Virus record (IMG/VR): IMGVR_UViG_3300024297_000001 | Source of the DNA: a virus | Lineage: Duplodnaviria; Caudoviricetes | DNA: 64,000 nucleotides | Reading direction: 5' to 3' (one strand) | Shown here: positions 1 to 64,000 of the stretch, piece by piece | How positions within the stretch are numbered: the stretch's first letter is position 1 | How the letters are laid out: each line of letters starts with the position of its first letter | Notes under the pieces: model-generated | Database searches by the model: none | What the model was told of the DNA's origin: nothing | The model's input: only the letters and a program-made list of their open reading frames with translations | Translations under genes and position numbers: made by a program

Positions 1-874
1 GTGGAATCCAAAAGCCTTTCCAGTTCTTTCTAATCTTGTTCATTGCGTCTCGATTCAAAGCACAACCTCCTGTTACAGCAAGATTGAAACTTGGATTATT
101 AAACTGTATGCTTGATGTAAGGTTAAGACATAGTTCTTCAAATACATGTTGTACAGCCGCCGCAAGGTTATCAATATCCTTAATCTCTGGTGCCCACCAT
201 TTTAATCCTCTATGGCAGTTCTCCTTGAACTTGATATTACATAATGGATCAAACGATACATCAAAGAAGTCATCGTATAAACGTTGTTTATACTTGTATG
301 GACTACCTGACTTTGCAAGTGTACAAACTACTGCTTCTTGTTTGTTAGGTTCATAACCTAAACGTTGTGTCATTGCACTGTACCAAAGTCCTAAACTGTT
401 AGGATAACTTTGACTGTTAATCTTTGTTAGTGAATCTGACTCACCTTTCCACATTGTTAGTGTTTCAAACTCTCCAATGCTGTCTATACAAATTATGTTA
501 CCGTGATTCCAACCACTTGTGTAATAACCATATGCCGCATGTGATTCGTGATGTGATACAGTGTATATAGGAACATTAACGTTCCACTGCTTTAAATATT
601 TTTTAATATTGTTTTCGTCAAACAACCAACCTTGACCTGCCCACAACTGTCTAATGCTTTTTAACATAGGACGTTCATACCAAACAACGTGATGTGGTTC
701 ACCGAAGTTCTTTCTTGCAACTTCAATAATAGTATGATTGAAGTGCGGATCGTTATCAACGTTACTGAAGTCCTTACTCAGTGCCGCCCACAACAATTCT
801 AACTTGTCATCTTCCTTTTTGAACACAGCCAATGATGCATCATGACTGTTACCTACCATTCCCCAAATTATCAT
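1..874 (-). CDS. Carbamoyltransferase (NodU/CmcH family), N-terminal part, runs off the window edge
   Basis: Not in the ORF track. Manual translation from ATG 874 (ATGA overlap with the upstream stop) gives MIIWGMVGNSHDASLA, SHHESHAAYGYY, DSIGE, SLGLWYSAMTQRLG and TGGCALN, with no stop before position 1. Confidence 0.85.
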   Translation of the reverse strand, partial: MIIWGMVGNSHDASLAVFKKEDDKLELLWAALSKDFSNVDNDPHFNHTIIEVARKNFGEPHHVVWYERPMLKSIRQLWAGQGWLFDENNIKKYLKQWNVNVPIYTVSHHESHAAYGYYTSGWNHGNIICIDSIGEFETLTMWKGESDSLTKINSQSYPNSLGLWYSAMTQRLGYEPNKQEAVVCTLAKSGSPYKYKQRLYDDFFDVSFDPLCNIKFKENCHRGLKWWAPEIKDIDNLAAAVQHVFEELCLNLTSSIQFNNPSFNLAVTGGCALNRDAMNKIRKNWKGFWIP

Positions 875-1116
875 TTTTTACCTCCGCGGTAACGTTTCCA
901 AATCTTGTGTAGTATGTAAAACCATACAGAATTAATTGCTGGTTCTATTATTGCAACTGCTCCTGCTTCCCAGATACTTGCACCTGTGATAGCACTTACA
1001 ACAATCATTGCTATTATAATATGTCCAATAAAAAATATAATGGCGAGTAATAAACTTTCGTCCAAGGTATCTTTTACAACATTCACAATGCCTTTAGTTA
1101 ACTCTGTCATAATCAT
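871..1116 (-). CDS. Small membrane protein, DUF2061-like
   Basis: Two hydrophobic segments ending in IEPAINSVWFYILHKIW. Confidence 0.65.
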   Translation of the reverse strand: MIMTELTKGIVNVVKDTLDESLLLAIIFFIGHIIIAMIVVSAITGASIWEAGAVAIIEPAINSVWFYILHKIWKRYRGGKK

Positions 1117-1227
1117 TTTACTTGTAGATAAACGGATCCCTTTTTTTAAGTTCTTCGATACGCTTCTTCATTCTGCGTTTCTCTTTCCAATCACAATAAG
1201 GCTTTGTGATCTTACCCCATACCTTTT

Positions 1228-2184
1228 TTAACCAAACCATTTTTTACTCCGTAGTTTAATTTTTAATTCATTCTTTTCACTTGATGATACAATTGAATAC
1301 AGTGTATAAATTTTACCATATGCTTTTATAGCGTCATTGACGTCATTGATGTTGTCGCCCCATTCCGGCATACTAATACTCCAACCAAGTTCGATTGCTT
1401 GTTCTACAAGTTTAGCACCTGCCTCATCTCTGTCTGGCACAACTATCTTATTTGTATTTAAACTATTAAGGAGCATGGCCTGTTGATCTTTGACTTCGCT
1501 ACCAAGCAATGCACAGCCTTCTACTGCAATAGCATCAAAAGGACCTTCTACAACTATAGTATGTACACGATTATAATCTTGTGCATCAAGATTGAATACA
1601 TATCCAGGTTGTTGATCACTTAGATATTTTGGATTACCATCTTTGATCTTACGTGCAGTGTATCCTACTATTTCTTTTTTGTGATAGAACGGAACAATGA
1701 TTCTGTCTTTTAATTCTGGTGACCAATGAAAGTTATAATCTTCCAAGTATAAGTTTCTTGATTGTAGATACTGTATAACTTCTATGGGTGTGTCTTTGCC
1801 GATAGGCTTACTGTCTTTGGGTAATTCTTTCTTATCAAACTTAGGCAGTTTTACTTCTATGTCACTCATGCCTACTTCTGCAATTTGTAAACACTGTAGA
1901 GCAAGTTTAGTAATTACGTCATCGGGTGTGTTCAACCATTGAAACAGTTTACGCATTTTATAACTTAACTGTCTGCCTGGAACCCAACTTGCTTTGAAGC
2001 CACAGTTGAAACAATGATAACTTATACCACCTTCACCGTTATTGATTAGTCCGCCACGTTGTCTTTTGTCAGCATTGGTTCCATTGTGTACACAACAGGG
2101 TGCATTGAAAGAAGTCCAACCACTTGGAGTAGTTTTCTTCTTAGACGGTAGATGTAACTGTAGTGTTTCGAATACAATGCTCAT
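1228..2184 (-). CDS. gp61: DNA primase (T4 gp61/DnaG-like)
   Basis: N-terminal Zn ribbon (APCC..YHCFNCG) and TOPRIM motifs VEGPFDA and PDRD. Confidence 0.9.
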   Translation of the reverse strand: MSIVFETLQLHLPSKKKTTPSGWTSFNAPCCVHNGTNADKRQRGGLINNGEGGISYHCFNCGFKASWVPGRQLSYKMRKLFQWLNTPDDVITKLALQCLQIAEVGMSDIEVKLPKFDKKELPKDSKPIGKDTPIEVIQYLQSRNLYLEDYNFHWSPELKDRIIVPFYHKKEIVGYTARKIKDGNPKYLSDQQPGYVFNLDAQDYNRVHTIVVEGPFDAIAVEGCALLGSEVKDQQAMLLNSLNTNKIVVPDRDEAGAKLVEQAIELGWSISMPEWGDNINDVNDAIKAYGKIYTLYSIVSSSEKNELKIKLRSKKWFG

Positions 2185-2190
2185 AATACT

Positions 2191-2219
2191 ATTATAGTAT
2201 ATTATGAGCGAAAAGTCAA
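2191..2219 (-). promoter_or_regulatory. sigma70-type promoter for the primase operon
   Basis: TTGACT-17 nt-TATAAT, ending 6 nt before the primase ATG. Confidence 0.8.
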
Positions 2220-17272: not shown

Positions 17273-17334
17273 AAATGTATTTAATTTAGTGCCAGATAAC
17301 ATTGTTTATTCCTGGTTGCTCAATAAGTAATTAC

Positions 17335-19278: not shown

Positions 19279-20410
19279 TCTTATGTAATAATTCAACAGG
19301 CTGTTTTTGTTGAAACAAATTAAGATAATGTTCTCTATTATATTCTAATATAGTTGTAAGTTCGTTGTACATGTCTTGTAGTTCATGTATATTATAACTG
19401 TTTAGTTTATCAACTTCACCCATTGCCATTGCAAGTCTTGTTGAAGGATCTTCTTCGTTGTCATATGATTCATCTATAATTTGACTAAAGGTCATAAAGC
19501 CAAGTTCACGCAATAGTGCTAACGTTCCTTTCAAACCAACAACAATAAACGGGTGCTTATACAAGAAACACTTCAATGCTTTTTCTGTAAATGCTTGTCT
19601 ATTATTATCCCAAAAGTCTCCTTCAGTAACAATACTAAAATAACTTTCTTTGTAATAATCATCTGCACTTGGCAAACTTCTTGACATTGATTTATATGTA
19701 ACTTCGTTCAAGTCTAACTCTACAGGCAAGTTGTCTTGTAATAATGTTACAAATTCTTTTGGCAAATTAGTATCTAATAAACTTTTGTCAAGATACTTTC
19801 TATGTTCTTGTTGTGTGCTATTGCCGTTGAATACATGTTCGTATGCACCAAGTGGACAACTTAGGTATGTATGTTTAGCAATATCATTCTTTAACAAATG
19901 ATGTGTTACTTGTAGTCTATGCATACGTTCTTGCCTATTCAAACACAAGAACTTTTTCTTACGTAAGTTACTGTTACCATTCCAGTCTTTGTTAAGATGA
20001 TTGCGTATATCAATGCCGTCATATCTATCAAGATGTAATTGTACATTAAAATATATTTTGTTCTTTGTGTTAAGAAGTTTGTTGTTTGTTAGTATTACCC
20101 AGTCAACAATATAAGGATTGTCCTGTACAGTTTTTTCTACCAACGCAAGAAATGCATCGTCTGTAAGCCCCTCGTATGAGTCATCGATAACAAGAAAGGT
20201 CGGTATTTTATACGTTTTAAAAAAGTTAGTAAATGTTTCAAATGTGTAATCATTGTCTCCTACATATTCAAAGAATACTACAAGTTTATCTTGATTCTCA
20301 AGTACCTTATCATTATGTCCTTCAAATTCAATAATACCTTCGAAGTTCTCGATAAACGTACCAAGGCTTCTGGAATTACTATCCATTGTTATTAAAGGTA
20401 TTTTCTTCAT
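19256..20410 (-). CDS. Putative glycosyltransferase (GT-B, GT10/GT47-like)
   Basis: KFLCLNR..HR, YFSIVTE, FTEKALK..HPFIVVG and IDESYD. Confidence 0.5.
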   Translation of the reverse strand: MKKIPLITMDSNSRSLGTFIENFEGIIEFEGHNDKVLENQDKLVVFFEYVGDNDYTFETFTNFFKTYKIPTFLVIDDSYEGLTDDAFLALVEKTVQDNPYIVDWVILTNNKLLNTKNKIYFNVQLHLDRYDGIDIRNHLNKDWNGNSNLRKKKFLCLNRQERMHRLQVTHHLLKNDIAKHTYLSCPLGAYEHVFNGNSTQQEHRKYLDKSLLDTNLPKEFVTLLQDNLPVELDLNEVTYKSMSRSLPSADDYYKESYFSIVTEGDFWDNNRQAFTEKALKCFLYKHPFIVVGLKGTLALLRELGFMTFSQIIDESYDNEEDPSTRLAMAMGEVDKLNSYNIHELQDMYNELTTILEYNREHYLNLFQQKQPVELLHKINSFVND

Positions 20411-21270
20411 AGTAATTTTACATTCTTAACCACTGCTTCGTCTTGTGGTTTTAGTTTTGGATTAGCAGGACACATTGCACAAATGCTGTGTGGTTTGAAA
20501 ATGTTTTTAACAAATTCTTCAAGTTCACTTTCTTGTACATCAATGTTAAGTCCTTCGTAATCTACATATGGTTTCCAATCAACATCATCTATTTGTCCTG
20601 CTTTGCTCAAGTATGTACGCACCATACTAATAGGAGGACACTTGTATAACTGTCCTTTGTATATTATAGGATATATGTTTACACCACATGCTTTATAACT
20701 TGCTTCAGGATCTTTGTCAGTCCAAGGCTTTAGTTTGCCGTTGATCGTTTGTCTATAATCATACCAGCCACCTTCTGTAGGATCAGTAACTTCTACTTCA
20801 ACATCATCTTGCTTGTGTGCAATATCACTAACCATACTCCAGTTGCCTTTGCTGTAAAAAGCATTCCATAAATTAGTTTCAATAAGTTCTCTAACCTTAG
20901 GATTTTTATTATGTAAACTACAACTAATTTTTGCTCTGCCTATTTTCTTAAGGACCTTTAGTATGTCTGGACGCTTAGGTAATAAGAATCCGTTAGTATA
21001 AACTTCTATAACTGCATGATCAAATATGCGTCTTGCTTCTTTTAGTATATCGTATATGCGTGGGTGTAACAAAGGTTCACCACCAATGATAGTAACATGG
21101 TCTGGGTCAAGTCTTTTACCCCATGCTTCCATGTTCTTAATAATGTCTTCAAATGATTCTACGAAAGGTAAGTTGTGATCAATAAACCTATCGCAACCTG
21201 GACACGCCAGATCACAACTTGTCGTAATCATGTATTCAAGATTTGGTATATGATAACCGCGTTTACTCAA
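20407..21270 (-). CDS. Radical SAM enzyme
   Basis: CDLACPGC, GGEPLLHP, YTNG, with C-terminal C..KCP..CAMC. Confidence 0.9.
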   Translation of the reverse strand: MSKRGYHIPNLEYMITTSCDLACPGCDRFIDHNLPFVESFEDIIKNMEAWGKRLDPDHVTIIGGEPLLHPRIYDILKEARRIFDHAVIEVYTNGFLLPKRPDILKVLKKIGRAKISCSLHNKNPKVRELIETNLWNAFYSKGNWSMVSDIAHKQDDVEVEVTDPTEGGWYDYRQTINGKLKPWTDKDPEASYKACGVNIYPIIYKGQLYKCPPISMVRTYLSKAGQIDDVDWKPYVDYEGLNIDVQESELEEFVKNIFKPHSICAMCPANPKLKPQDEAVVKNVKLL

Positions 21271-22324
21271 AGTAACTTTCCAATGTGCCTTTACGTTTCG
21301 TATCTAAAGTAACACAATGGAAGCCACCACTCAATGTACGTGCTTGACGCATAGGTAATGCTATACTTTCAATTCCCCATTTATCTAATTCTTTACGCAG
21401 GTCTTCTTGATTCTCATCACAAATTACAAGTTTTTCATTAACACTCATAAAGTTCAAACCAATATATTTACTGCATGGCGAAACGTTGTTAGGCAAGTTA
21501 GTGCCGATGTCATGCACCTTATCACCTGGGAAGAAAATCTTATCCCAGTTTTTAAAGATAGGTGGATACCAGTCAGGATTAATTCTATCTCCGTTAAACA
21601 ACACAAGTCCAGGACGTAATGGAATTACTGTACTGTCAAAGTGTGAATAACTATAAAATTTTTCAGCAAGATGAATTTTATATCCTAAAGGTTCAAGGAT
21701 AGTTTTTAACCACTGTCCTCCTAATAGTGTACCACTGTTGCTAACTTGATAGATTAAATCCTTACCAAGTCTTACTACGTTGGGTGCATCAAATACAATT
21801 TCTTTGTTAACAAGTGTAGGAATACTTAGGTCCTCAAGTTGATAACTTTCATCAAGCAGTCTTGGACGAGGCGCACTAATCCATTGTGAACCGCCTGCCA
21901 TTGCTTCATATAAAAATTCTCTGTATGCTGTTGTTTCGTATTGTCTTGCTCTCATTGCACCTGGACAATCAATAATAAGATTGTTAAGTGGCAATAATAA
22001 ATCTCGTGGACAGTATGTGTACCAACCTGTAGTTTTCCAATCTGGAGAACCAAATTCTACGCTGTGATCAATTGACTCTGGACGTCTAACTTTAACTCCA
22101 AGGTTAGTTAAAAGTTTGGCAAGGCCATCAAGGTCCTCATTTGCTTCGTCAATTACCCACTCAGGACTTGGTCCTTCTAAGTCTTTGATGTGTTCATATT
22201 TGCAATCTGCAAATCCAAAACTGTGCGTTGATTTATCTACTGTTGGTATTCTTGCATGATCGGCGATACCCACAAAACATTCTTCTAATGGATCCCAATC
22301 ATTGTGACTGCTTACTACTGTCAT
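21263..22324 (-). CDS. Amidinotransferase (glycine/inosamine-phosphate family)
   Basis: SHNDWDPLEE, YCPRD, FDAPN, HFDST and GGFHCVT (Asp/His/Cys triad). Confidence 0.9.
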   Translation of the reverse strand: MTVVSSHNDWDPLEECFVGIADHARIPTVDKSTHSFGFADCKYEHIKDLEGPSPEWVIDEANEDLDGLAKLLTNLGVKVRRPESIDHSVEFGSPDWKTTGWYTYCPRDLLLPLNNLIIDCPGAMRARQYETTAYREFLYEAMAGGSQWISAPRPRLLDESYQLEDLSIPTLVNKEIVFDAPNVVRLGKDLIYQVSNSGTLLGGQWLKTILEPLGYKIHLAEKFYSYSHFDSTVIPLRPGLVLFNGDRINPDWYPPIFKNWDKIFFPGDKVHDIGTNLPNNVSPCSKYIGLNFMSVNEKLVICDENQEDLRKELDKWGIESIALPMRQARTLSGGFHCVTLDTKRKGTLESYFE

Positions 22325-22370
22325 ATTAATCTCCTTGGTTAGTATTCATATTTAAATGGCTGATATGAGA

Positions 22371-23246
22371 TTAAGTGCCAGAACTGGTATTGACTATTTC
22401 GCCTATTAGTTCGCTAATACACACTCTATTGACGTCACTGCCTCGGTTCCAATCTTTCCATTTGTCGTCTCCGATGCCAAACATAATGCAGTCTGTGGGT
22501 AGTAAGTTCTTATCTTCTATTGCTTGATTGTAAGCAGTTGCATACTGTTGCCAGTTCCAATCTACTGGAAAGTTTTGTATTAAACTATTTGCAATGCTTA
22601 TGTCAATTCTGTTATTCATTTCTACAGAATTAAACACATCAATGCCGTCATCTGTATCTACACGTTCACAACGTACACCTACACGTAAAAATTCTGCGCC
22701 ATAAAATGCTTTACTAATACTAAACGTAATAGTTTCTACGCATTTCCATTGTGCTAAATCTACGTTAATATTCTTTGTACAAGGATAATATGCAAAGTCA
22801 AGTAGCACAGGAATTTCTAAACTATTACAAATATCTAAGTAATATTCAAGGTCAACATGCTGTCTACCATAGTCGCTGAAAGGTACACTTGTGATTAACA
22901 CATCGTCGTGTTCAAGTGGTTCGTCTTCGATGTATTCCCAATCACACCCATGTTTCAAACATGCACTGTGATACATAAATTCACCTTTGTGAAATCTAAA
23001 ACGTTTGTTTTTGTGTCTAAAATAAAAATGATCAAAGGCTTGTACAGTACCGCAAACTAATTTTTGGCTTGGAAATAAATCAAGTCCTATTAGTTTATTA
23101 TTACCACTTGCACTAATCCAATCCATAAATGTTTTAATAAACGTAGATGGTAATTCTTCGTTATACAAATCATTTACAGGATTTAATTCTGTAATAAACT
23201 TTTTAATTTTGTTGTCTGTTACAGGTTTAGCGCCTCTTAAATTCAT
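22371..23246 (-). CDS. PLP-dependent enzyme (fold type I, aminotransferase-like)
   Basis: LLDFAYY and FSISKAF (Schiff-base Lys), then LRVG. Confidence 0.75.
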   Translation of the reverse strand: MNLRGAKPVTDNKIKKFITELNPVNDLYNEELPSTFIKTFMDWISASGNNKLIGLDLFPSQKLVCGTVQAFDHFYFRHKNKRFRFHKGEFMYHSACLKHGCDWEYIEDEPLEHDDVLITSVPFSDYGRQHVDLEYYLDICNSLEIPVLLDFAYYPCTKNINVDLAQWKCVETITFSISKAFYGAEFLRVGVRCERVDTDDGIDVFNSVEMNNRIDISIANSLIQNFPVDWNWQQYATAYNQAIEDKNLLPTDCIMFGIGDDKWKDWNRGSDVNRVCISELIGEIVNTSSGT

Positions 23247-23745
23247 TCTTTACTCCAGTTACTTGCATAGTGTACTTAGGTCTCATTCCGCTATTAGCAC
23301 TTAAATGCGGCTCATCTTTTTGAATAATAATTGCATCACCACGTTTCCATTTAGTGATAGGTGTATTGTTTATTTCAAAATAATGTCCACTCTGCCAGTC
23401 TTCTAAAAATATATTAATACGACAACATTCGTCAGGATCAACTCCGTAGTTTTTTGATATCATATAAAACGTATCAACGTGTTCTGGTAATACTTGTCCT
23501 GGTGCTTGTTGCATTACTGCGACAGTACATCTGTCAAATAACGACTTACCAAAATTAATAAAATCTTCATTATCTGGAAATGCTTGTTTGTACTGTGTGT
23601 TGTCTTTTGTATAACCTGCAAGATGATATTTTTTATTTTGTGATTCAAATGCAGTTGCTCTGCCTTGATCACTTACGTTATCTTTATCATCATAAAGAAG
23701 TTTTTTGTAATTAAGTTCTGGTATATCTAATGTTATTTGGTCCAT
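23227..23745 (-). CDS. Cupin/2OG oxygenase (Asp/Asn beta-hydroxylase-like)
   Basis: LPEHVD..PHLSANSG..YTMQVTG. Confidence 0.7.
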   Translation of the reverse strand: MDQITLDIPELNYKKLLYDDKDNVSDQGRATAFESQNKKYHLAGYTKDNTQYKQAFPDNEDFINFGKSLFDRCTVAVMQQAPGQVLPEHVDTFYMISKNYGVDPDECCRINIFLEDWQSGHYFEINNTPITKWKRGDAIIIQKDEPHLSANSGMRPKYTMQVTGVKNEFKRR

Positions 23746-24479
23746 GGTTTGTCGTATGCTACTTTCTCTTTGTCATCAAACCAATACAAACTTCTGTGTG
23801 GAGGATGTTTAGAGTCATGCTCTGCGTTACTAACATAATAGAACAAACGCAATGCTTTTCTACTTGTACCTTCTGGGTTTGTCATTGGCTCAGGGTAACC
23901 GTGAAATGCAAAGTTATCATAACTCCATATAACGGCATTACCTGCACCTACAGGAACTTTGCTATGTACAGTTTCTCTTTTTCTATCATAAAACTGTAAC
24001 TGTCCACCCCAATCTTGATCCCAATCTTCATTAAGATAGATTACTAAACTTACCATGCGGTGTAATCTAAGTTGTTCATTCCAATTGAAATCGCTGTGTA
24101 CTTTTAAACTATCACCTGTTAATGACTTACAATATCCTGCACCTATAAGATGAGGATCAGGTATTAGATCAACTGTGTCAGTAACGTCTTGTAACCATTT
24201 GATAAACTTTCCACTGTGTAATGCATGTATAACTGCATCTTGTACAGGCGTCTTATCAACGTTATTATATTCATACATACATGAACCTGCTCTTGTAAAA
24301 TGCTTACAGTCTTCAAGTGGAACTTCTTCCAACTCTTTAGCCATTGCTTTTACAAGTTCGTTTGGAACAAGGTTGTCAATAGTTAATAAACTATAACTTG
24401 GGTGACTACGATACTTTTGTTGTAGTTCGTATGTGTTTGAAAAATTCTTTTCAATATGATCTAAAAGTTGCTGTTTCAT
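23733..24479 (-). CDS. 2OG-Fe(II) oxygenase (prolyl-hydroxylase-like)
   Basis: VHSDFN, LVIYLN..WGGQL, FHG and RKAL. Confidence 0.9.
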   Translation of the reverse strand: MKQQLLDHIEKNFSNTYELQQKYRSHPSYSLLTIDNLVPNELVKAMAKELEEVPLEDCKHFTRAGSCMYEYNNVDKTPVQDAVIHALHSGKFIKWLQDVTDTVDLIPDPHLIGAGYCKSLTGDSLKVHSDFNWNEQLRLHRMVSLVIYLNEDWDQDWGGQLQFYDRKRETVHSKVPVGAGNAVIWSYDNFAFHGYPEPMTNPEGTSRKALRLFYYVSNAEHDSKHPPHRSLYWFDDKEKVAYDKPWTK

Positions 24480-24487
24480 ACAAGTAT

Positions 24488-25189
24488 TTAAACAAGGTCA
24501 GTAAAACGAGGTTCTTGTTTTGGTCCGCGATCAATAGTTCTCTTAGGCCAGTTGTGTCTATAAGAACTTTTATAATGTGTAATTTTTGCATGTAGTTGTG
24601 GTTTCTTAAAACGCCAATTATTATAAATTTTACAATCAAATAATTTAAATCGTGTGTTTTGTATTGTTACAATTTCGTTGGTCCAATTTGTAGGCAAGTT
24701 ACCTCTAAGAAAATAATTCATTTCTCTTTGATCACTTCTTCCTTGTTTTGTACCGTCTATCTTATTCATACGTTGACACCATATGTCTACAAATTTTAAT
24801 GTTGATTCTGTTTTTCTAAAGAACATTACACCTGCATTAATAGGTTGATCATTAAAAAACTTTACACCTCTTACAGTTACACCGATATCATAACTACCTC
24901 TATCTTGAATACCATGCAAACTTTGCCAAAGGATTGTATCAGCGTCCATCCAAACTACATACTCTCCTGCATTAACTTTGCTGAGAGCATCTTTGACCAT
25001 AAAAGGTTTACTTGGAATTTTTCTGCCTGCGTCTTCGTATACTTCACCAACAAAAGGTTCGCCATATCCTAATTCACCTAAATCATACACATGATATTTT
25101 TGTCTTAGATCAACAAGTGAACGTACTAATACATCACACATATTCTTAAATTTTTTATTTGCGGCAGTTATTACTAATATATCATTCAT
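24488..25189 (-). CDS. Nucleotide-diphospho-sugar transferase (GT77-like)
   Basis: WMDAD, INAGVMFFR and DQREMN. Confidence 0.75.
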   Translation of the reverse strand: MNDILVITAANKKFKNMCDVLVRSLVDLRQKYHVYDLGELGYGEPFVGEVYEDAGRKIPSKPFMVKDALSKVNAGEYVVWMDADTILWQSLHGIQDRGSYDIGVTVRGVKFFNDQPINAGVMFFRKTESTLKFVDIWCQRMNKIDGTKQGRSDQREMNYFLRGNLPTNWTNEIVTIQNTRFKLFDCKIYNNWRFKKPQLHAKITHYKSSYRHNWPKRTIDRGPKQEPRFTDLV

Positions 25190-25898
25190 TTTCTAATACC
25201 GTTAGTTTTTTGTAATTAAACAATTTACATTTATACTCTGTTAGTAAAGGTTGCACAGTTCTATTGTCTTCAATAAAATATACAAACTGTTTTGACAAGT
25301 GCGGCATAAGTGTATCTAATGTATTTGTAATACTACTATCACTATGATGTCCATCATCAATTGCAATGTCTATTGTTCTACCTTTTAGAATTTCGTTAAT
25401 TTTTTCTTGGTTATCTGCAAATTGATCGTACTCATAAAGTTCAGGTGCCTTATGTTGAAATGCTCCTTTGTCTTTTAAGAATTGTAAATTATTTTGTGTA
25501 TGACTTACGTCAATATCTAATCCAATAATATCTGCATTAGGAAACAATTGACTCCATATTGCTAATCCTGTGCCTTTCAATATACCACATTCTACAATAG
25601 TTTTTATGTTAGTACGGTCCATTAAATGTTTACTATAGTAAGTTGCATATCCATGACGGGTCATACGATCACCTCCTGACATACCTGCAGGATTTAATTT
25701 TGTTTTAGGTGCAAGTGGACTTACTTTGTTACGTGGCACAGTGTTATGATAGCCACCAAAGTTTTCTTCCATTTGTTGCAACCATTGTACTGATCCTACT
25801 TTAATCATACGTTCCCTTTTGTGTAGTTTAGATTGTGCTAAACCTATTTTCAATATTTCTTCTTCCTTTGGCCATTCTTCATCAAAGTATCTGGTCAT
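25182..25898 (-). CDS. Class I SAM methyltransferase (sugar O-methyltransferase-like)
   Basis: VECGILKG, GLDI and IDDGHH. Confidence 0.7.
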   Translation of the reverse strand: MTRYFDEEWPKEEEILKIGLAQSKLHKRERMIKVGSVQWLQQMEENFGGYHNTVPRNKVSPLAPKTKLNPAGMSGGDRMTRHGYATYYSKHLMDRTNIKTIVECGILKGTGLAIWSQLFPNADIIGLDIDVSHTQNNLQFLKDKGAFQHKAPELYEYDQFADNQEKINEILKGRTIDIAIDDGHHSDSSITNTLDTLMPHLSKQFVYFIEDNRTVQPLLTEYKCKLFNYKKLTVLENE

Positions 25899-26680
25899 GC
25901 TAAAACTGGTTCCTTGGTAGTTGTTAAATTAATATCTAACATTTCTCCAAACTTTAAATTATCAGGAGTTTTGTAACAACCGCCTCCTGGCCAAAAAGTA
26001 AGTTCACCTAATTTAGGCTGTCCTTCCCAATATAAATCAACTCTAATATATTTCCATCTTGCAGATATCTTTTCTGCTATCTTTTTCATTTCAAAAAAGT
26101 TTTCTAAGCCATCAAATGGTTCTTGTTCTACGTGTTTCATTGTGTGTACTAAATGCAATGGTGTAGTTTTTCCATTAGGATCTAATATAGATTCTTTCTT
26201 TTTACCACCATGTCTATCCCAAGTCATAGTTACCCATTTTACTTCACCATGCACACAATTAAATTTATAGTCAACGCCTGTGCCTTCTAATTTAACTTCT
26301 TTAACTACGCCAGGTGTAATAAGTCTATATGCCCATTCGCCTTTGCCTTTTCCGTAAGGCTTAGATGCTTTTGCTTTACAAAATTCTTCTGCTTCTAATT
26401 CTTCTTGTTTGTTATTAGCAAAACGCACACCACCTGAGCCGTTGTTTGCTTTAATAACCATAGGGTATGTTGTTGTGTTAGGTATAATTAAATCATTGCC
26501 AAAGTCTTTAGAAATAAAATCTTTGACTGCTAATTTATCACAACAAGTAATTTGATCTTTGTCTTGATCGTAAATTTTTAACCAAGCAATTTTTTCGTTG
26601 AATGTTTTTGGATTATCTATGTTAGGCCAAGTACCTAACTTCTTTTTATGCCAGTGAGTTGCTTCGTGCTTAATGCTCAT
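25895..26680 (-). CDS. TupA-like ATP-grasp amide ligase
   Basis: PKTFNEKI, DKLAVKDF, KANNGSG, DYKF, RVDLY and GELTF. The likely start is ATG 26680. Confidence 0.85.
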   Translation of the reverse strand: MSIKHEATHWHKKKLGTWPNIDNPKTFNEKIAWLKIYDQDKDQITCCDKLAVKDFISKDFGNDLIIPNTTTYPMVIKANNGSGGVRFANNKQEELEAEEFCKAKASKPYGKGKGEWAYRLITPGVVKEVKLEGTGVDYKFNCVHGEVKWVTMTWDRHGGKKKESILDPNGKTTPLHLVHTMKHVEQEPFDGLENFFEMKKIAEKISARWKYIRVDLYWEGQPKLGELTFWPGGGCYKTPDNLKFGEMLDINLTTTKEPVLA

Positions 26681-27380
26681 GATATAGTTCTCTAATGATA
26701 TCAATTTTTTGTTGATATGCATTAAGACCTACAATATCTTCTTCAATAGTTTCCTCTGGAGCAAAGATGTAACAAGTTTTACTTTTTACTAAGATAGGAT
26801 GGTATCTTAAATTATGGAAATAAGAAATCATTTCATTTACATCTTGATTAGGTTCAAACACTACCCACGGTCTAAACTTTTCTATTGTTTTCATTGCGCC
26901 TTGTATTACAGGCCATTCATAGCCTTGCACATCAATTTTTATTAAACTACATGACTCTAAATTTTCGTCATCTAATTTTTTTACTCTAATAGTATATGAA
27001 TGTTTTTTCTTTTTATTTACAATGTGTGCATTACCACAGTTATCATCACTGTCTACAAATTCTGCTTCTGTGTTTTCGTTACCAAGACCATATTCACGTA
27101 TATCACCTTCGCCTTGCATATTTTTATACAAGCATTCTAAATTACGTGGACTTGGTTCGTAACTAATAACTTTTTTAAATTTGTCTTTAAATGGATACGA
27201 CCATATACCAATGTTTGCACCTACATCAATAAATGTTTTGAATTCTTTAATATTTTCTAAAATTTTGCTACGAACACGTTCTTCGTATGTTGGGTTATTT
27301 TGATCTTCGTTATCAGCAACATGACTTGTAATTTTTATTTCGTTATCAGGTACCCACCAACCGTTATCTAAGTGCTTCAT
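26670..27380 (-). CDS. FkbM-family methyltransferase
   Basis: FIDVGANIG, YEP and IKIDVQGYE. Confidence 0.9.
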   Translation of the reverse strand: MKHLDNGWWVPDNEIKITSHVADNEDQNNPTYEERVRSKILENIKEFKTFIDVGANIGIWSYPFKDKFKKVISYEPSPRNLECLYKNMQGEGDIREYGLGNENTEAEFVDSDDNCGNAHIVNKKKKHSYTIRVKKLDDENLESCSLIKIDVQGYEWPVIQGAMKTIEKFRPWVVFEPNQDVNEMISYFHNLRYHPILVKSKTCYIFAPEETIEEDIVGLNAYQQKIDIIRELYHEH

Positions 27381-29208: not shown

Positions 29209-30195
29209 TTAGTTTTGACGTGAACGGATCATTGCAAGAATGTCTTCCGCACTATTGTCTGCTTTAGGTTCTGCCGCTGGTGCAGTTTGTGCCACTGCCG
29301 CTGGAGCCGCCTCTGCTACTGGAGCCGGAGTTGCCTCAGGTGCCGGAGCAGTTGTTGCCGCTGGAGCAGTTGCTGGTGCTCTATTTTGTGGATCACCAGT
29401 TCTCGCCGCCATTCCCGCTGGACGGAAATATTGACCAAAACGTTCTGCGTCATATGCTTCACCATCTACAGATGCTTGGAACATTTCTTGCATTACTTTT
29501 ACTTCAACCTCTGAAGGCTTCTTAGGTAAAAAGTCTGACAAGTTGTATAGACCATTCTTCTCAACGGCCGCAGTTTCAACTTCAGTTAAAGGACGCTCTC
29601 TACGTGCCCAGTTACTTGTAGAATAATCTGCATAACCACCTTTAGAAGTTTTTACGATTCTAAAGTCTACACCTGAAGTGTAATCAGTTGGCAGTTCTTC
29701 CATATCTGGATCCATTAACGCACTTTTAATAAGTTGGAAAATTTGTGGACCAATAATAAAACGTCTAATTGGATTTTCTGGAGTACCATCTTCAGACAGT
29801 CCGTTTTCAGTTACAAAGCCTTGGAATACGTATGAACGTTTCTTCCAATACTTACGACCCATATCTTCTAAAGTAGGATCTTTAAACCAACCTCGAACTT
29901 CGTTTAAGATTGCACATGACTCACCATACATTTCCATGCAAGGGATTTGCACTTGTACTGGTCTTGAGTCAGTTTCGCCTTTTAAACCTGCGAAAGGTAG
30001 TTTGATCATCAAACGTTCTTTCCAAAAGAAAGTGTTTGTGTCGTCCCCATCAGGTAAGAAACGGACAGTTGACTGTTCGCCTTCCTTTAAGTTCCAAAAT
30101 GGGTAAATTGCGTTGTCGCCGCCGCTTGAAGAATTACCGCTTGTGCGTGATTCTTGTTCTTTCAGTTTAGCTCTTATTTCTGCTAATGTTGCCAT
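29209..30195 (-). CDS. gp32: Single-stranded DNA-binding protein
   Basis: VRFLP, YWKKRSY and GYADYSTS, with an Ala/Pro-rich tail. Confidence 0.85.
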   Translation of the reverse strand: MATLAEIRAKLKEQESRTSGNSSSGGDNAIYPFWNLKEGEQSTVRFLPDGDDTNTFFWKERLMIKLPFAGLKGETDSRPVQVQIPCMEMYGESCAILNEVRGWFKDPTLEDMGRKYWKKRSYVFQGFVTENGLSEDGTPENPIRRFIIGPQIFQLIKSALMDPDMEELPTDYTSGVDFRIVKTSKGGYADYSTSNWARRERPLTEVETAAVEKNGLYNLSDFLPKKPSEVEVKVMQEMFQASVDGEAYDAERFGQYFRPAGMAARTGDPQNRAPATAPAATTAPAPEATPAPVAEAAPAAVAQTAPAAEPKADNSAEDILAMIRSRQN

Positions 30196-34104: not shown

Positions 34105-34120
34105 TGTATAGTATTTACTC

Positions 34121-34148
34121 AAAAAAATAGGACCCGAAGGTCCTATTT
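34121..34148 (-). terminator. Intrinsic terminator with a C(UUCG)G tetraloop
   Basis: AATAGGACC-TTCG-GGTCCTATT followed by a T run on the minus strand. Confidence 0.85.
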
Positions 34149-39463: not shown

Positions 39464-42400
39464 TTATAGGCCCGCTATTTCTCCAGTGTTTTTAAGTCTT
39501 AATGGAATGTAAATAAACTCCACTGCTTTCACTGGTTCAATTGCAATGTCTACATAAAGTTCGTTTCTATCAATTCTTGATGGAGTGTTGTTACTTTCGT
39601 CACACACTACTAAGAAATCATATAACGCTCTTTGTCCTACAAGCTCAAGCATTAAACTATCTGCTTGTTGTTTGATCTCGTCTCTTGTGATCTTATCGTT
39701 AGGCTCAAAAATGTAAGGCTTCGCAAGTTTGTTTAACTGTCCACGTAAGTAAATTACTAAACGTGCAACGTTAATTCTATCTAAAGAACTTGCATTCTTC
39801 GCTCTTGTCTTTTGACCAAAGTTAACAAGACCTGCACCAGTTAAGAATGTTACTGGGTTAACCTTGTTACTGTACAATGTATCTCTTTGACCTTCGTTAA
39901 GAGCAACTGTTTTAAACTCGCCTTCGTTATCAATAAAGCCTGCACTTGAAGCGTTAGTAATTCCACCACGTCTTGTTCCTGCTGGAGCAAACCATGGGTA
40001 ACTAACTTGATCACTTAATGCAATAGTTCTAAGTATACCATGTGATGCTGGAACAACTACGTTGTTACCTGCATTGTCACTTGTGAATAAACTTGGATAA
40101 AACACACCTAAGTATTCGTCACTTGTTACTAATCCATTGTCGTTATCTTCAACAGCACCGTTAACGTTTGTTGCCCAGTTGTTAATTCCTGTGGCATCAC
40201 TTGCTAATCTCATTGGAGAGTCACCAACAACAAATGCTGTTAAGCCTCTGTCATTGTTCAATGTAACCATTTCACCAATCAGCTCTGGATAACCAGGTGT
40301 TGCTAATAAGTTAAAGATTCTTGATTCGTTATCTCTAATGTCTTGGTTGCTGTTCATCATTGCCTGTAATGCTTGTACAACAACTTTACGCTGTGCCTTA
40401 CGACCGAATGTACCTGAACCATCTGCTTGGTTAGCACTTTCAGTTACCCATCTGTGTGGATAGTAAGACGCCATTGACTCGTCGCCAGTACGTGCATTAT
40501 CTTCTGCAAGATCGATTGAATTACGTACAAATTTCTTAACGTTAAATCCAGAACGTCTTAAGTTCCATAACAACATACCTTTTGGATATAGTGCTGGATC
40601 TGGAGCATCTGGGTCTAAGTAATTACTTGCCGCTAAATCTGCAATAGTACCTGCTGATCCACTGTTAACACCTGAAGTGTTATAACGTGCATCACTAAAC
40701 AACACACCATTCTCTGTAGTCTGGTCTGTGCTATCTCTTAATACCCATTTCAATGTAGTTCCATTGTATTGGTAAATTACTGGATAGTTTTCTAAGTCTG
40801 CTGTACTAACCCAAAGGTCGCCATTTACAAGTGCTGAACCATCTGATTGTGTAGTTGGTTCTGTTGCACTAACAATTGGACCATTTGGTGAACTGTTTGG
40901 ATATCCTGAAGAACTGTCTTGGTAACCTACCCAAGTAGTTCCGTTGTGTAACATAATATCAACTTCGTCAACAACTGAGTTGTACCATAATTGACCATCA
41001 AGTGCTAATGCACTCGGTGCATCATCGCCTGCTGTGTATGATAGTACTTGCCAGTTTGAAGCCATATACTGTTTAGGATTAGTTGAACTGTCTGTTCCTG
41101 GTACATAGTATAAGTTTGCTGTACCTGTGTTTGCATCAACATAAGGAGTAAATCCTGCTAATGTTAATCCACCATCTGTATCAACAATTCTAATTTCTCC
41201 ACCATCGTTGTGTTCAATAACAATTCTGTTTGAAGCGTCTACACTTGCTACAATGTTAGTAAATCCAGCACTGTTAATTTTTCCTGCAATTTCTTCAGCG
41301 TCTGCCGCCGCGCCTGTTGCATTTGTACTAACTGTTACTGCCGCACTCATTGTTGCTGAGTTTGTAGTTGACTCACTCATTGTAAATGTGTAAGTACCGC
41401 TTGAAACTTGATCTGCGATAATTGCTGATGAAATCTTAGTAGATCCAGTAGCAACTCTTTTAAAGATTTTAAAGTCATACTCAACATCTGCTGATTCAGT
41501 AACGTTTGTTTGTGCATAGTAAGTATCAACTGAAAGGTTTACACCTCCGCCTGTTGAATCTAAGTTTTTCAATGCTGTTGCGTTATCTGCATATAATGGA
41601 ACACTCTTGTTGTCCCATAGTTCAGTAGTTCCATTCCACTCTTTAACAGAAAGTTTAGCACCTAAGTTTGCGTCAGTAGTTTTAAACCAAATACTTCCGC
41701 TTGGTCTTGGTGTTGTGTCTGTTGTTTTGTATTCTGGAACACCAGTGTGAGGTGCTATTTCTAATTTAGGTGCATTGTAAGTTGCCGCTGTTAAACCTAA
41801 TTCAGCCGCTAAACCTGTACCGTCTGCAATTACAAGAGCAACACCAGTTGAGAAAATGTTCAATCTGCTGTTTACTGCACTTGCTGTTACGCCTGCAATA
41901 CCTGCACCATTAATATCACTAACAACATCTGCTAATGCTGTGCCTGATGCTGTAATTGTGTTACTATTAATAGTTAAAGTTTTACCACCTGTTACAGTTG
42001 GATTGCTTGTTGCCGCAACTGCTGTTGGCCAACTTGCCTGCCATGCGTCAGTTCCAACTTTAACCCAAGTACCACTTGTGTTTTTGTAGTACGTTTTGTT
42101 AATTGTAGTTGTTGCCACTGTTGCATAGTCACCAATTTTACCAACTGATGCTAAAGGAATACCAGTTGCTTGTCCGCCTACTAATTTAGTTGCGTCTGTA
42201 ATTACTGTTGGTGTTTTTAATGTAAATGTTTGACCACCTGTTGCTGTAGCAGGATTGCCATTCCATTCAAAAATGCCCATTCTACTAATTTGCGTATCAA
42301 ACCAGTAAGTTCCATCAGCCGGATCAGCCGCTGGTGCATTCGCAGTTGCTTGAAGTTCGTTCAAGTCAATGTCTGCTCTTACAACAAAAGCTCTGTTGGA

Positions 42401-42712
42401 AACTCCTAAGTATGAGTAAGCCGCTTGTAGTCCATATTCATTAATCTCTGATCCATGAATTGGATTGTTGTTGTTATCTGTATAAAACAAAGGATCTCCG
42501 AAAGTTTCGGATAAATCTCTTTGTGATGTAAGCAAGAACGGAACTCCAGCGTTTGCTTTCGTTGTTCCCCTTGCTGTACCTGTGCCACTTGCGTTCGCTT
42601 TATCTTGCGCCGTAGCAACAAAAATCATTGGGGTAGTGCCTGGTTCAGCAGGTGTATAGAAACTTTCATCTATAACGCTGACCTGTACTCCGGGTGATAC
42701 TAAGTTTGCCAT
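39464..42712 (-). CDS. gp18: Tail sheath protein (enlarged)
   Basis: MANLVSPGVQV, WFAPAGTRRG, LDRINVARL and FIYIPL. The likely start is ATG 42712 with an AGGAG SD. Confidence 0.93.
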   Translation of the reverse strand: MANLVSPGVQVSVIDESFYTPAEPGTTPMIFVATAQDKANASGTGTARGTTKANAGVPFLLTSQRDLSETFGDPLFYTDNNNNPIHGSEINEYGLQAAYSYLGVSNRAFVVRADIDLNELQATANAPAADPADGTYWFDTQISRMGIFEWNGNPATATGGQTFTLKTPTVITDATKLVGGQATGIPLASVGKIGDYATVATTTINKTYYKNTSGTWVKVGTDAWQASWPTAVAATSNPTVTGGKTLTINSNTITASGTALADVVSDINGAGIAGVTASAVNSRLNIFSTGVALVIADGTGLAAELGLTAATYNAPKLEIAPHTGVPEYKTTDTTPRPSGSIWFKTTDANLGAKLSVKEWNGTTELWDNKSVPLYADNATALKNLDSTGGGVNLSVDTYYAQTNVTESADVEYDFKIFKRVATGSTKISSAIIADQVSSGTYTFTMSESTTNSATMSAAVTVSTNATGAAADAEEIAGKINSAGFTNIVASVDASNRIVIEHNDGGEIRIVDTDGGLTLAGFTPYVDANTGTANLYYVPGTDSSTNPKQYMASNWQVLSYTAGDDAPSALALDGQLWYNSVVDEVDIMLHNGTTWVGYQDSSSGYPNSSPNGPIVSATEPTTQSDGSALVNGDLWVSTADLENYPVIYQYNGTTLKWVLRDSTDQTTENGVLFSDARYNTSGVNSGSAGTIADLAASNYLDPDAPDPALYPKGMLLWNLRRSGFNVKKFVRNSIDLAEDNARTGDESMASYYPHRWVTESANQADGSGTFGRKAQRKVVVQALQAMMNSNQDIRDNESRIFNLLATPGYPELIGEMVTLNNDRGLTAFVVGDSPMRLASDATGINNWATNVNGAVEDNDNGLVTSDEYLGVFYPSLFTSDNAGNNVVVPASHGILRTIALSDQVSYPWFAPAGTRRGGITNASSAGFIDNEGEFKTVALNEGQRDTLYSNKVNPVTFLTGAGLVNFGQKTRAKNASSLDRINVARLVIYLRGQLNKLAKPYIFEPNDKITRDEIKQQADSLMLELVGQRALYDFLVVCDESNNTPSRIDRNELYVDIAIEPVKAVEFIYIPLRLKNTGEIAGL

Positions 42713-42817
42713 ATTTGTTCTCCTGTTGAACTTATTATATGTATTTAGCAACGTAGACGTAAAAGTATGCTAAACACCATGTCAAAAAGGGCATCAAAAG
42801 GGTAGGTAAATACTAAC

Positions 42818-53900: not shown

Positions 53901-56900
53901 ACAACAAGACTGTATGTTCCGCCACTTCTTGTAACTGTAAAGATTGCACCCGAACCTGAATTGTTTTGATTATTACCTTGGATTGCTGTTACACTGCCAC
54001 TTCCTGTAGCACCTGTACCAGTAAATGAAACTCCTGTAATTCCTCCACCTGAGTCAACACTTGTAATAGTAATTGTTAAATCGTTTGTTGGACTTGCACC
54101 ACTTAAATTAGTTCCGTTGATTACAATCTCTTGATCAACACCGTAATTAAATCCTGCACTGTCAATACTAACTGTGTAAGTACCACCTGCTAATCCAATT
54201 TGGAATTGTACACCGTTACCAACTACTCTTTGAATGTTAATTACGTTTGGATAAGATTTAGTATTAACTGCTGTACCTGAAATACTTGTTCCTGTAATAG
54301 CACCGTTAACATCAACTGATGAAATTGTAATTGTTAAATTGTTTACACCGTCAGTACCACCTAACTCTGAACCAAGTATTGTAAAGTTCTCTGCCGCCAA
54401 GTAACCTGAACCTGCGTTAGTAACAGTAATTGAATAAACTGTACCAATTCTCTGTACGTTAAACGAAGCATCAACACCGTTAACTGTTGTAGAAGTGTTT
54501 GCAGGATTACTGTAAGTTACATCTGCGTCAACTGCTGTACCTGTTGCACTTACACTTGTAATTGATCCGCCAGCACCAATACCAGTAACTGTCATAACAC
54601 AATCGTTTGTACTATCAGCGCCACCTAAATCGAAACCACTAATTTTAATTACATCACCAACAGTATAACCTGTTGATGTATCTGGTGATGCCATTGAAAC
54701 TGTATAAGCATTATTAGTGTATACAACATCAAAATTACCATCACTACCAAGTCCGCCTGATAAGTTACCTTCTTGATTAAAGAATGTACCATTACCATCA
54801 AAGCCTACACCTGATTCTGTAAATGTTAATACTTCTCCAAGAGTGTCAACAGTATCAATAAGAATTGTTAAATCGTTTGCACCGTCAGCACCTCCAAGTT
54901 GTTGTCCACCAATTTGTATTCTATCACCAACTTTATAATCTGTACCAGCGGCGTTTAGTGCTGTTGTATATACACCAGATGTTCTTGTAACATCAAAACT
55001 TGCACCGTTACCAATTGAAGTATCATTATTACCAGTAACTCCTACATAGTTTACTGTGTTACCAACAAGAATTCTTGTTGTTGCTTCTGATAATGTTAAA
55101 TCATTACCTGCAACATTTGTTACGAAAGTTGCTGTACCATCACCTCTATCAAGACCAGCACCAACTTCAACTGCTGTAGCATCTTCAACTGTAATTTGTG
55201 TTGAACCTTGTGCTATATCTGATGTCAATACAGGTGTATCAATTATTGATCCTGTACCTGTTACACCAGTAACCTGAGAACCTAATGGTATACCGCCTGG
55301 TACTGCTACAAGTGGAGCACCAAGTGCCGGTACTGCACCAGTAAATGTAATTCTGTCTGCTCCGGTTGCCGCCGCCAATGGCATAGTAAATGATCCTGAT
55401 GAACCTTGTGTAGTAACTTCGAATGTTGGAGTGTCACCCTGAATACTTGCACCTGTGTAAAATGCCGCTTGTCTTAAAATTGTATAGAACGTTACAAGTG
55501 ATGTACCTGCTGATATTCCAACTTTAGCCTTTGCGTAATATGTAAAAGTTGTATTATCAACAACACTGTTAATAATAAATGTACCTTCAGCACGACCGTT
55601 ACCTGCAACCTCTCCTGCTAAACCTCTAATAGTAATTGGATTACCTTCTTCAAATCCATGTGGTGCAGTTGTTGTTACAGTAATTAAGGATTGACCAACT
55701 CCGCTACTGCCTGATGATGCATCAGTAGTAACACCTGCAACCCCTGTATCAGTGCCTGGTACTTCGTATGTTGATGGATAACCACGCATTGTACCAATCG
55801 CTTGCCACTTGGTAGGCTGTAGTCCGTACTCAAAGTCAGCGTCAAGCATTGATAGAGCGTTTGCAACTCTGTGTCTTTCAATTGCGTCAGTACCAAAGTC
55901 ATATGGTCTAACTTTTAAGTCACCTTGATCAACAAAAATTTGTAATGTATCTGTGTCTGACCATACAGTAACTTTTTCTTCTGATGGTAAAACTGAAAGT
56001 CCACCTGTAATTACATCTGTAAGTATTTTTGCTAATTCTGTAACACGATCCTGAGCACCTAATTCGCTTGCCGCACCTAAGAAATATTGTGTAGTTTCCG
56101 GAGTACCTGTTTGTTTAGTTGGATATACTGTTTTAGGTAAGATGTAATTGTTAATTAAATCTCGCATAAAGTTTTTCGCGGCAATTTCTTGCTCACGTGT
56201 ACCGTCAATCTGTGGTGTAGGACCTACCCAATATTTTGATGCTGTATCTCTTACATATTCATTACCACCGTAACGTAAATCTTTTAACATTGCATCAATG
56301 TTATATCCTGTATCTCTTTCACACTTAGGTGAATTGTAAGTATAACCGTCCCATATACTTCCTGCTGTTGCGTTAGTAACGTTATCTACAATCCAAGCAC
56401 GTACTTCGTCTTTAATAAATTCTTTGTTGTTTAAAATTAATGCTCTTGAACCTGTAAGGAATTCTGTGTTTGTTGTATCAGTATCAAATAATACTTGTGT
56501 AATTGTATCAGTATTTTCAAGAAACTTTTGAAAGTAAAAGTATGTTGGTGTAAATTCTACTGACTCATATGCATATCTTACTCCTGCGCCTTTACCTGGA
56601 TCACTAAAATTAAATAGAACCTGGTTAACAGTTGTATCAGTAATTAGTAGTAAATTATCTTGTGTAACTTTTGTTGGAAAAATTGCTCTACTAATTTCCG
56701 CTCTATGAAAGTCTGGCATTGCATCAAGACCTGAAACAATAACAGTACCAATAGTATCAACAAGTACTTTTTTTACCTGTGCCGCCGCTGTTGATTCAGA
56801 AACGTATTCATCATTTTTATATTGATAAGTTACTGCTGGTGATTGTTTAGTTGTGTAATCAGTATTTGTTAAAATGTAGTTGTTAATAATATCAACACAC

Positions 56901-62763: not shown

Positions 62764-62793
62764 TATATTTTATAGTTCCTTTTATGCAATTAC

Positions 62794-63627
62794 TTATTGT
62801 GTAGTTGGTTTTGTTTCGTCATTCGTGACATAGTCCCAAAAGAAGTGTTGTTGTCCTGTGCGTGGTACTTGTACTACCCACTTGCCATCAACTAATACTC
62901 CGCTCGGACTACTTGTTGGTAAGTCTTCTCTTTCACCAAACTTATCACAGCAACTATCGACAGTAATAATAGGAATACCATATTGTGAACTCATCATACG
63001 TAGGTGTACGTCATGCCATTCCATCCATAAACTGTCTTGACTGTTTCCTCTATCTCCATTTGTAGCATGTAATATAACTTCTACTTGATGTATACTTGCC
63101 ATTAATGGTAGACTTGGTGCGTTAAATCTAAATCCATTACCCCAAAAATCATTACATATCATTCCGCATGTTCTCACACCGTCAAGATAATGTGTTTTAG
63201 TTGTTCCTGGTGGATCTGCTAATACTTGATCCCAACTATGATGTGGACTATCTTCCCCACCAACGATATATTGTTTGTTAGTTGCTCCAAGTAATTCGCC
63301 TTGTTTATCGTAATATCTAATTTGATTTTTTCTAATACTTCCTCTATGCTCAACATCAACCCATAATGTACCAAGTGCAATACCCATTCCTTTTGAGTTT
63401 GCATGTGTAATTACTCTGTATGCAGATTTGGCTAAATCAGGCATACCATTTTCTAATACTAAATCAAAGTTTGGAAAATAACCTGATAGTGAACCTTCAG
63501 GTGTTAGTAACCAGTCGCAGTTATTTTCTGCGGCCCAGTCAATTGCCTTAATGATACTTGCTTCATTCTTTTCAAGATTCTGTGTTACAGGTATTTGAGC
63601 ACCCGCAAATCTAACTGTATTACTCAT
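62794..63627 (-). CDS. Carbon-nitrogen hydrolase (nitrilase family)
   Basis: Glu-Lys-Cys triad: TPEGSLSGY, NKQYI and ICNDFW. Confidence 0.88.
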   Translation of the reverse strand: MSNTVRFAGAQIPVTQNLEKNEASIIKAIDWAAENNCDWLLTPEGSLSGYFPNFDLVLENGMPDLAKSAYRVITHANSKGMGIALGTLWVDVEHRGSIRKNQIRYYDKQGELLGATNKQYIVGGEDSPHHSWDQVLADPPGTTKTHYLDGVRTCGMICNDFWGNGFRFNAPSLPLMASIHQVEVILHATNGDRGNSQDSLWMEWHDVHLRMMSSQYGIPIITVDSCCDKFGEREDLPTSSPSGVLVDGKWVVQVPRTGQQHFFWDYVTNDETKPTTQ

Positions 63628-63672
63628 ACAATTATTTAAGTATTGGGTGTAGTGTTTAGTGTGAGATTTGGC

Positions 63673-63999
63673 TTATGCAGTACCGCATGGCGAACGTGGA
63701 ACATCTACTTTCCAAGCCGCATAACGTTGGCATTTGTGAACTTTAAATGTAGCACCTGTACCAGCATCAGCACCGCCGTCTTTTGCTTCGTACGTGAATG
63801 TAGCACCAGCAAATTCTTTTGCCGCTCTTCCTTCTACAATATCTTTACCATCGTTGATTGCTTGGTTACTACTTAAAGTTAAAGCAGTAATAGCACCACT
63901 GTTAACTGTTTTTACTGTAGCAATAAGATGATCAGCAATAATATAATTGTCTAAGTCTGCTTTTGCAAATTTAATTTTGTCACCTACTTCGTAATTAGA
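63673..63999 (-). CDS. C-terminal end of a fibre-like protein (truncated by the window)
   Basis: Manual translation SNYEVGDKIKF..SGAITALTL..GTGATFKV..CGTA, stop at 63673. Resembles the repeats of the 2204-aa protein. Confidence 0.65.
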   Translation of the reverse strand, partial: SNYEVGDKIKFAKADLDNYIIADHLIATVKTVNSGAITALTLSSNQAINDGKDIVEGRAAKEFAGATFTYEAKDGGADAGTGATFKVHKCQRYAAWKVDVPRSPCGTA

Positions 64000-64000
64000 A

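Follow-up and report, generated by a model that had tools for sequence, protein, structure and literature searches.

The window analysed here, a stretch of 64,000 bases from IMG/VR virus record IMGVR_UViG_3300024297_000001 (Duplodnaviria; Caudoviricetes), belongs to a tailed phage with a genome of ~350 kb and is completely free of the short word GCWGC (W, A or T). CTAG is missing as well, and AGCT is almost gone. Relatives gathered and ordered via the T4-type large terminase (TerL) of the window have lost the same words in nested combinations, or other words, or none. Judging from these patterns, we are fairly confident that the purges represent restriction-site avoidance under type II restriction endonucleases of the hosts. 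The mechanism that we propose is a long-term and still ongoing selection against short words cut by the hosts' type II enzymes, in which the words would be removed almost wholly through synonymous choice at codon junctions; because such removal is synonymous, the proteins are left unchanged.

Words were counted on both strands, and a/b denotes the observed/expected count of a word throughout. GCWGC was found 0 times on either strand, while the expectation was 58.5 (standard deviation 7.1) in dinucleotide-preserving shuffles, 56 by a maximal-order Markov model, and 71.5 in 200 within-gene synonymous-codon shuffles, the lowest of which still contained 55; gene calls gave 73 genes, which together span 96% of the 64,000 bases. 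The original prediction, made from the letters of the window, that GCWGC is absent is therefore confirmed under Markov and codon-aware nulls alike, the word being strongly depleted and not near expectation, but its figure of ~40 expected sites was too low against nulls of 56-71.5. GCCGC and GCGGC together (GCSGC; S, G or C) were over-represented (85 vs 50 expected), which agrees with the earlier view that the avoided word is GCWGC rather than GCNGC. The same holds for the codon usage that had been noticed by eye. Single Ala codons are mostly GCA or GCT (GCA 797, GCT 258, GCC 74, GCG 122; GCA/GCT 84% of all Ala codons), and this share is 93% for Ala ahead of other, non-Ala codons beginning with G. 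When two Ala codons follow each other, the first was GCG in 56 and GCC in 19 of the 75 pairs in window genes, and GCA or GCT in none of them. The individual Ala-Ala examples listed earlier do exist, but on the minus strand and at positions shifted by 1-30 bases (Table 2), and the tail of the gp32-like gene, for which three pairs had been claimed, actually holds four within 29272-29361, with six in the whole gene.

GCWGC had been taken as the single avoided word, but at least three complete purges proved to be layered. With the codon-shuffle null, the window had CTAG at 0/124, AGCT at 4/151 and GGATG/CATCC at 21/70; GATC was at expectation (194/197), and GCATGC occurred once. A scan of 293 palindromic patterns gave WGCGCW 0/16, GTGCAC 1/9 and CTGCAG 4/18, and the patterns with zero counts were CTAG, GCWGC, WGCGCW and sub-patterns of CTAG or AGCT. 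CTAG, GTGCAC and GGATG are known type II sites. GTGCAC is also depleted throughout the family, even in lineages where GCWGC is normal (2/55 in the complete relative G004), and G004 has AGCGCT at 0/26 beside the lack of WGCGCW in the window. The asymmetric word GCAAGC/GCTTGC was low in the window (2/21) and in two further relatives (10/50 in G002 and 18/59 in G003).

The way in which the words were removed can be read from codon context. Leu CTA was used in 0/539 cases ahead of a codon beginning with G, compared with 180 uses elsewhere, and Ser AGC in 0/240 cases ahead of a codon beginning with T, compared with 140 uses elsewhere. Ala was written GCT in 2/370 cases when the preceding codon ended in A and in 256/881 cases otherwise; an NCT codon followed by an AGN codon was seen 0/1196 times. 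Even the stop codons conform, none of the eight TAG stops being preceded by C. When the GCWGC sites of G004 were aligned to window genes, the encoded residues were conserved at 30 of the 88 sites, and the window was recoded at every one of these 30, with 17 of them being Ala-Ala changes from GCW to GCS. The synonymous recoding is thus directly observed. All four surviving AGCT sites are followed by C (AGCTC, or GAGCT when read from the opposite strand), a context with a background of 29% in G004, and the loci L001-L005 keep the site in the gp32-like gene and two of the sites in the sheath gene as GAGCT. A preference of the selecting enzyme for certain flanking bases might lie behind this context; GAGCT is still strongly depleted, since ~44 sites would be expected (29% of 151).

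The purges differ from lineage to lineage (Table 1). Four long relatives, G002-G005, were compared with the window, gene content being compared by tblastn; G002 and G003 are GCWGC-free like the window, and G004, which is complete (357.6 kb), and G005 are GCWGC-normal, with near-normal counts in both. Among 80 TerL loci, the window clade is without GCWGC, AGCT and CTAG, the next clades are without GCWGC and AGCT, and many others are without GCWGC only; one clade has no TGCA and little GCWGC, one has no CATG, and others purge nothing. The TerL tree requires at least six state changes for GCWGC and at least two each for AGCT and CTAG. Among 160 family loci, GCWGC was purged in 61 of the 148 that were testable, AGCT in 31 and CTAG in 14, and other purges were of GCGC (9), CATG (8), CGCG (3), TGCA (2), AATT (1) and GGCC (1). 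None of the 160 had purged GATC, ACGT, GTAC, TCGA, TTAA or CCGG, nor any of 31 other W- or S-centered 5-mer palindromes. Protection by a 'GA' context was considered as the reason why GATC escapes purging, and was set aside as speculation because ACGT, GTAC and CCGG, which are not of the GA type, are never purged either. In the sister-clade loci L036, L038, L040, L064, L066, L166, L207, L214 and L027, L028, L043, L044, L052, L054, L055, CATG stood at 0/36 to 0/70; TGCA stood at ~6/36 to 17/99, with low GCWGC. We suggest that GCWGC would be the oldest and most widespread layer, to which AGCT would have been added in a subset of lineages and CTAG in the window clade only, and that sister clades with other hosts would have lost either CATG or TGCA in their place, or no word at all.

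Table 1. Word counts (observed/expected) in relatives of the window phage.
Contig	Length	GCWGC	AGCT	CTAG	CATG	Remark
G003	186 kb	0/207	440/557	620/632		
G002	185 kb	0/188	0/425	578/551		
G007	62.7 kb	0/70	2/121	0/110		~78% nucleotide identity to window
G009	29.6 kb	0/34	0/63	0/62		
G010	90 kb	0/80	0/190	251/254		
G005	262 kb	288/398	707/898	962/914		
L154		0/14	0/37			purged, with DpdA-like gene
L164				0/33		purged, with DpdA-like gene
L166					0/69	purged, with DpdA-like gene

The purged relatives are 72-87% identical to the window at the nucleotide level, indicating that the zero counts were held through thousands of substitutions. This bears on two other explanations. Mutational bias, either by deamination of host-methylated cytosines in GCWGC and AGCT or by very-short-patch repair eroding CTAG, finds some encouragement in the slight scarcity of CTAG in many bacterial and phage genomes, and the Cellulophaga phage phiST has it at 111/185. 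We nevertheless hold it to be highly improbable, because the zeros are exact over contigs of 62-186 kb while sister lineages are at expectation, because the Ala-Ala changes run from W to S at the third position (GCA/GCT to GCG/GCC) and not from C to T as in deamination, and because window-private genes, which none of the four long relatives has, are just as clean; the private island (Table 2) is as free of GCWGC, CTAG and AGCT as the rest. An artefact of assembly or library preparation, for example of a restriction-based library, has next to no probability in our judgement, and nothing was found in its favour. At least 15 separate seawater studies yielded runs with the same sequence (at least 97% of the sampled words in each), the purge recurs in relatives that were assembled independently, at the identities given above, and the codon-context rules are biological.

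Which enzymes might have imposed the selection can be proposed from the words. The candidates would be a TseI/ApeKI-type enzyme (GCWGC) or a BbvI-type enzyme (GCAGC), an AluI-type enzyme for AGCT, and a CTAG enzyme. The specificity of ApeKI is GCWGC and that of BbvI is GCAGC. GCAGC reads as GCTGC on the opposite strand, so that the palindromic TseI/ApeKI type and the asymmetric BbvI type would leave identical footprints. TseI cuts GCWGC (PMC6329791), and AluI cuts AGCT (PMC5567051; PMC7499927). The N4-methylcytosine methyltransferase M.AbaBS3I of an aquatic Chloroflexi acts on GCWGC (PMC6329791), and GCWGC methylation was reported in a marine Chloroflexi metagenome-assembled genome (MAG; PMC8919816). 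The avoided word is the recognition sequence of the TseI/ApeKI, BbvI and M.AbaBS3I systems, and GCWGC systems exist in aquatic prokaryotes; Chloroflexi are a lead from the literature, however, and not a predicted host.

A survey of prokaryotic virus genomes found complete loss of orthodox type II sites in about a tenth of them, the avoidance being mostly of such sites (Rusinov et al., 2018; PMC6286503). In line with this bias, GGATG, which is asymmetric, is less strongly depleted in the window. The present case resembles the palindrome avoidance that the survey describes for virulent dsDNA phages in that short orthodox type II words, with GCWGC among the surveyed sites, are lost beyond what composition or codon usage explains. 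It differs in that three words of 4-5 bp are lost together from a ~350-kb genome where many hundreds of sites would be expected, and in that the purges are nested and stepwise within one uncultured marine family carrying DNA-modification genes. DNA methyltransferases of the families PF00145, PF01555 and PF02086 (C5, N4/N6 and Dam) had no match in G002-G005, and the methyltransferases of the window are of small-molecule or sugar types. Since the four long relatives have no DNA methyltransferase of these families, avoidance appears to replace self-methylation.

It had also been suggested that the phage spares its own DNA from a GCWGC nuclease that it encodes, with further nucleases for AGCT and CTAG, all shredding host DNA while the phage genome stays free of sites. 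Restriction enzymes are often orphans without a Pfam match, several clade-specific genes of G002 and G003 are orphans, and the gene search of the window genome covers 64 kb of ~350 kb, all of which leaves some room for this idea. No support for it emerged, however. The only gene found in all three GCWGC-free genomes (window, G002, G003) but in neither G004 nor G005 encodes a generic S-adenosylmethionine (SAM) methyltransferase (Table 2), which is probably unrelated to the purge and a coincidence of clade history; none of 30 clade-specific or window-specific proteins scanned belongs to a nuclease family in Pfam, these being tailoring enzymes or orphans. Moreover, at least five words (GCWGC, AGCT, CTAG, CATG and TGCA) are purged in different nested combinations, so that the phages would have had to acquire and lose a corresponding set of nucleases. 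To our knowledge, phages that break down the DNA of their host are shielded by base modification or by inhibitors and do not rely on avoiding sites. We therefore think self-sparing quite improbable.

The family also carries genes for 7-deazaguanine. FolE and a QueE-like protein are encoded in all four of G002-G005, QueD/PTPS in G004, and a phiST-gp040-like protein together with a DpdA-like protein of 519 amino acids (aa) in both of the GCWGC-normal relatives, G004 and G005; the contigs of G002 and G003 stop just before the region of the latter two genes. The nearest neighbours of the 519-aa protein by language model are viral TGT/DpdA clusters (0.93 and 0.88). A PF01702 search for a transglycosylase gave no match, nor did the 519-aa open reading frame (ORF) match any Pfam family or PDB profile; its AlphaFold (AF2) model has a pLDDT (predicted local distance difference test) of 50, and hhalign against gp042 (DpdA3) of phiST aligned the MHFLG motif only, with a probability of 1.3%. 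As other DpdA candidates, a 334-aa protein beside QueE in G003 was rejected for lack of a match in cultured phages, and a 367-aa ORF of G004 because it does not resemble phiST gp042 and matches nothing in the PDB. Twenty of 80 contigs around the DpdA-like gene were purged, and the three of these in Table 1 carry the gene themselves, so that pathway genes and purges lie on the same molecules. The pathway genes occur in lineages with purges as well as in those without.

Every guanine is replaced through DpdA3, and the DNA of phiST is resistant to enzymes with G-containing sites; this base exchange is post-replicative (PMC10516641). AluI and HpyCH4V are likewise resisted by DNA synthesised with 7-deaza-dGTP (PMC7499927). 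The family of the window shares with phiST the FolE, QueE-like radical SAM, phiST-gp040-like and DpdA-like proteins. It differs in that phiST, with 100% of its G replaced, purges no 4-5-mer (in L141+L142, KC821604.1, used as a control, AGCT was 348/356 and GCWGC 68/72, and CAGCTG, 0/12, was the only word missing), whereas the family of the window purges up to three, and in that its modification is predicted from genes, DpdA being putative among them.

How far host restriction explains the purges has to be weighed with this in mind. The original suggestion of selection by a host GCWGC nuclease is upheld in that the removal is total, synonymous and lineage-specific and extends to other type II words, with no DNA methyltransferase of the searched families in the relatives, and we infer from this that host restriction enzymes of the types named above were the selective agent. 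Where the suggestion falls short is that it took GCWGC as the only avoided word and that TseI and BbvI types are inseparable. Two points count against host restriction as the explanation: full G replacement by way of the 7-deazaguanine genes, if it occurs, should already protect G-containing sites, and phiST, with all G replaced, shows no short-word purge. The coexistence of these genes with avoidance suggests that the modification may be partial or motif-specific, absent at a vulnerable stage, or ignored by the host enzymes; host nucleases that target the modified base are less likely.

The modification itself could also be the cause, if the purged words were contexts in which a 7-deazaguanine-type modification cannot be installed, or in which a sequence-specific host nuclease that depends on the modification cuts modified G. 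The genes are family-wide and occur on purged contigs (L154, L164 and L166), every purged word contains G, and GCWGC is listed as a methyl-directed type IIM site (PMC6286503). However, G004 and G005 carry the genes and have normal GCWGC, and lineages with the same genes purge different words or none, which indicates that a shared modification machinery cannot alone set the pattern. No deazaguanine-dependent nuclease was found in the cited literature, and the DpdA assignment is not confirmed by sequence or fold. We thus rate a purge dictated by the modification as improbable, and prefer avoidance of host restriction.

As to the phage itself (Table 2), the tail sheath, which is ~48% identical to those of the jumbo phages Atu_ph07 and PA5oct, places it in the jumbo T4-superfamily group; a gp15-like sheath stabiliser is also encoded in the window. 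A megablast search of GenBank phages with 8 kb of the window gave no match, but at least 596 IMG/VR contigs encode a TerL with 75-100% identity to that of the window. The IMG/VR contig G001 is 100% identical to the window except around ~31151-31510, where it is unaligned over ~360 bases and has its own segment of ~320 bases. This hypervariable segment lies in a 727-aa ORF (30318-32501) without a Pfam family. A block of tailoring enzymes (17302-27841) encodes an N-terminal-SPASM radical SAM protein, a second radical SAM protein, 2-oxoglutarate (2OG) oxygenases, a nucleotide-sugar transferase, a TupA-like ATP-grasp protein and an FkbM methyltransferase.

Table 2. Coordinates of features in the window.
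Feature	Position	Strand	Remark
GCG GCG GCT in frame (Ala-Ala-Ala)	155..163	-	placed at 126-134 earlier, ~30 bases off
Class-I SAM methyltransferase (Methyltransf_23), 187 aa	8626..9189	-	beside 2OG oxygenases; not a DNA methyltransferase family
Window-private island: radical SAM, 2OG oxygenase, glycosyltransferase, methyltransferase, ATP-grasp	20407..26722	-	no counterpart in G002-G005
gp32-like gene	29209..30195	-	name from the original prediction; no Pfam family found
Ala-Ala pairs of gp32-like gene	29272-29277, 29296-29301, 29305-29310, 29356-29361, 29404-29409, 29566-29571		all GCG-first
Surviving AGCT (AGCTC), start of gp32-like gene	30169..30172		conserved in L001-L005
T4-type large terminase	32515..34122	-	
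Tail sheath	39464..42751	-	
Surviving AGCT (AGCTC), sheath gene	39642..39645		
Surviving AGCT (AGCTC), sheath gene	40281..40284		
GCG GCG GCA in frame, tail sheath gene	41303..41311	-	
Surviving AGCT (AGCTC), sheath gene	42389..42392		
GCG GCG GCA in frame, 2204-aa gene	56780..56788	-	

The sequencing runs that hold the window sequence are bulk seawater metagenomes. No tRNA gene was found in the 64-kb window, and a scan of genome contigs gave a freshwater contig, L120 (CAYVBV010000066.1), binned with a Polynucleobacter MAG, as the sole match. L120 is 10 kb long, with a TerL 79% identical, a GC content of 41% and no word avoidance, and the MAG is labeled uncultured Polynucleobacter sp.; this contig may stem from a branch of the family that lives in freshwater, or its binning may be an artefact.

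As a phenomenon, restriction-site avoidance is familiar from textbooks and not new. Two features make this case of further interest, the nested evolutionary series and the presence of DNA-modification genes alongside the purges. The former is an unusually clean natural experiment, in which one abundant, uncultured family of marine jumbo phages has lost GCWGC, AGCT and CTAG completely in nested steps and in this order, and CATG or TGCA in other clades; such a series can date and order encounters with host defences, and the purged word sets serve as a host fingerprint, by which any marine bacterium with GCWGC, AGCT and CTAG restriction becomes a candidate host. The latter raises the question of how complete or effective the modification is against restriction. 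We put forward, tentatively and at less than even odds, that the family is equipped for wholesale G replacement and that purging of G-containing words nevertheless persists and keeps evolving. If the DNA is indeed modified, post-replicative exchange would leave a restriction-sensitive stage, or marine enzymes would cut deazaguanine DNA, or nucleases would target the modified base. If this is true, the purged words of each lineage would be a read-out of what the modification fails to protect against, and a fingerprint for matching uncultured jumbo phages to the restriction repertoires of their hosts.

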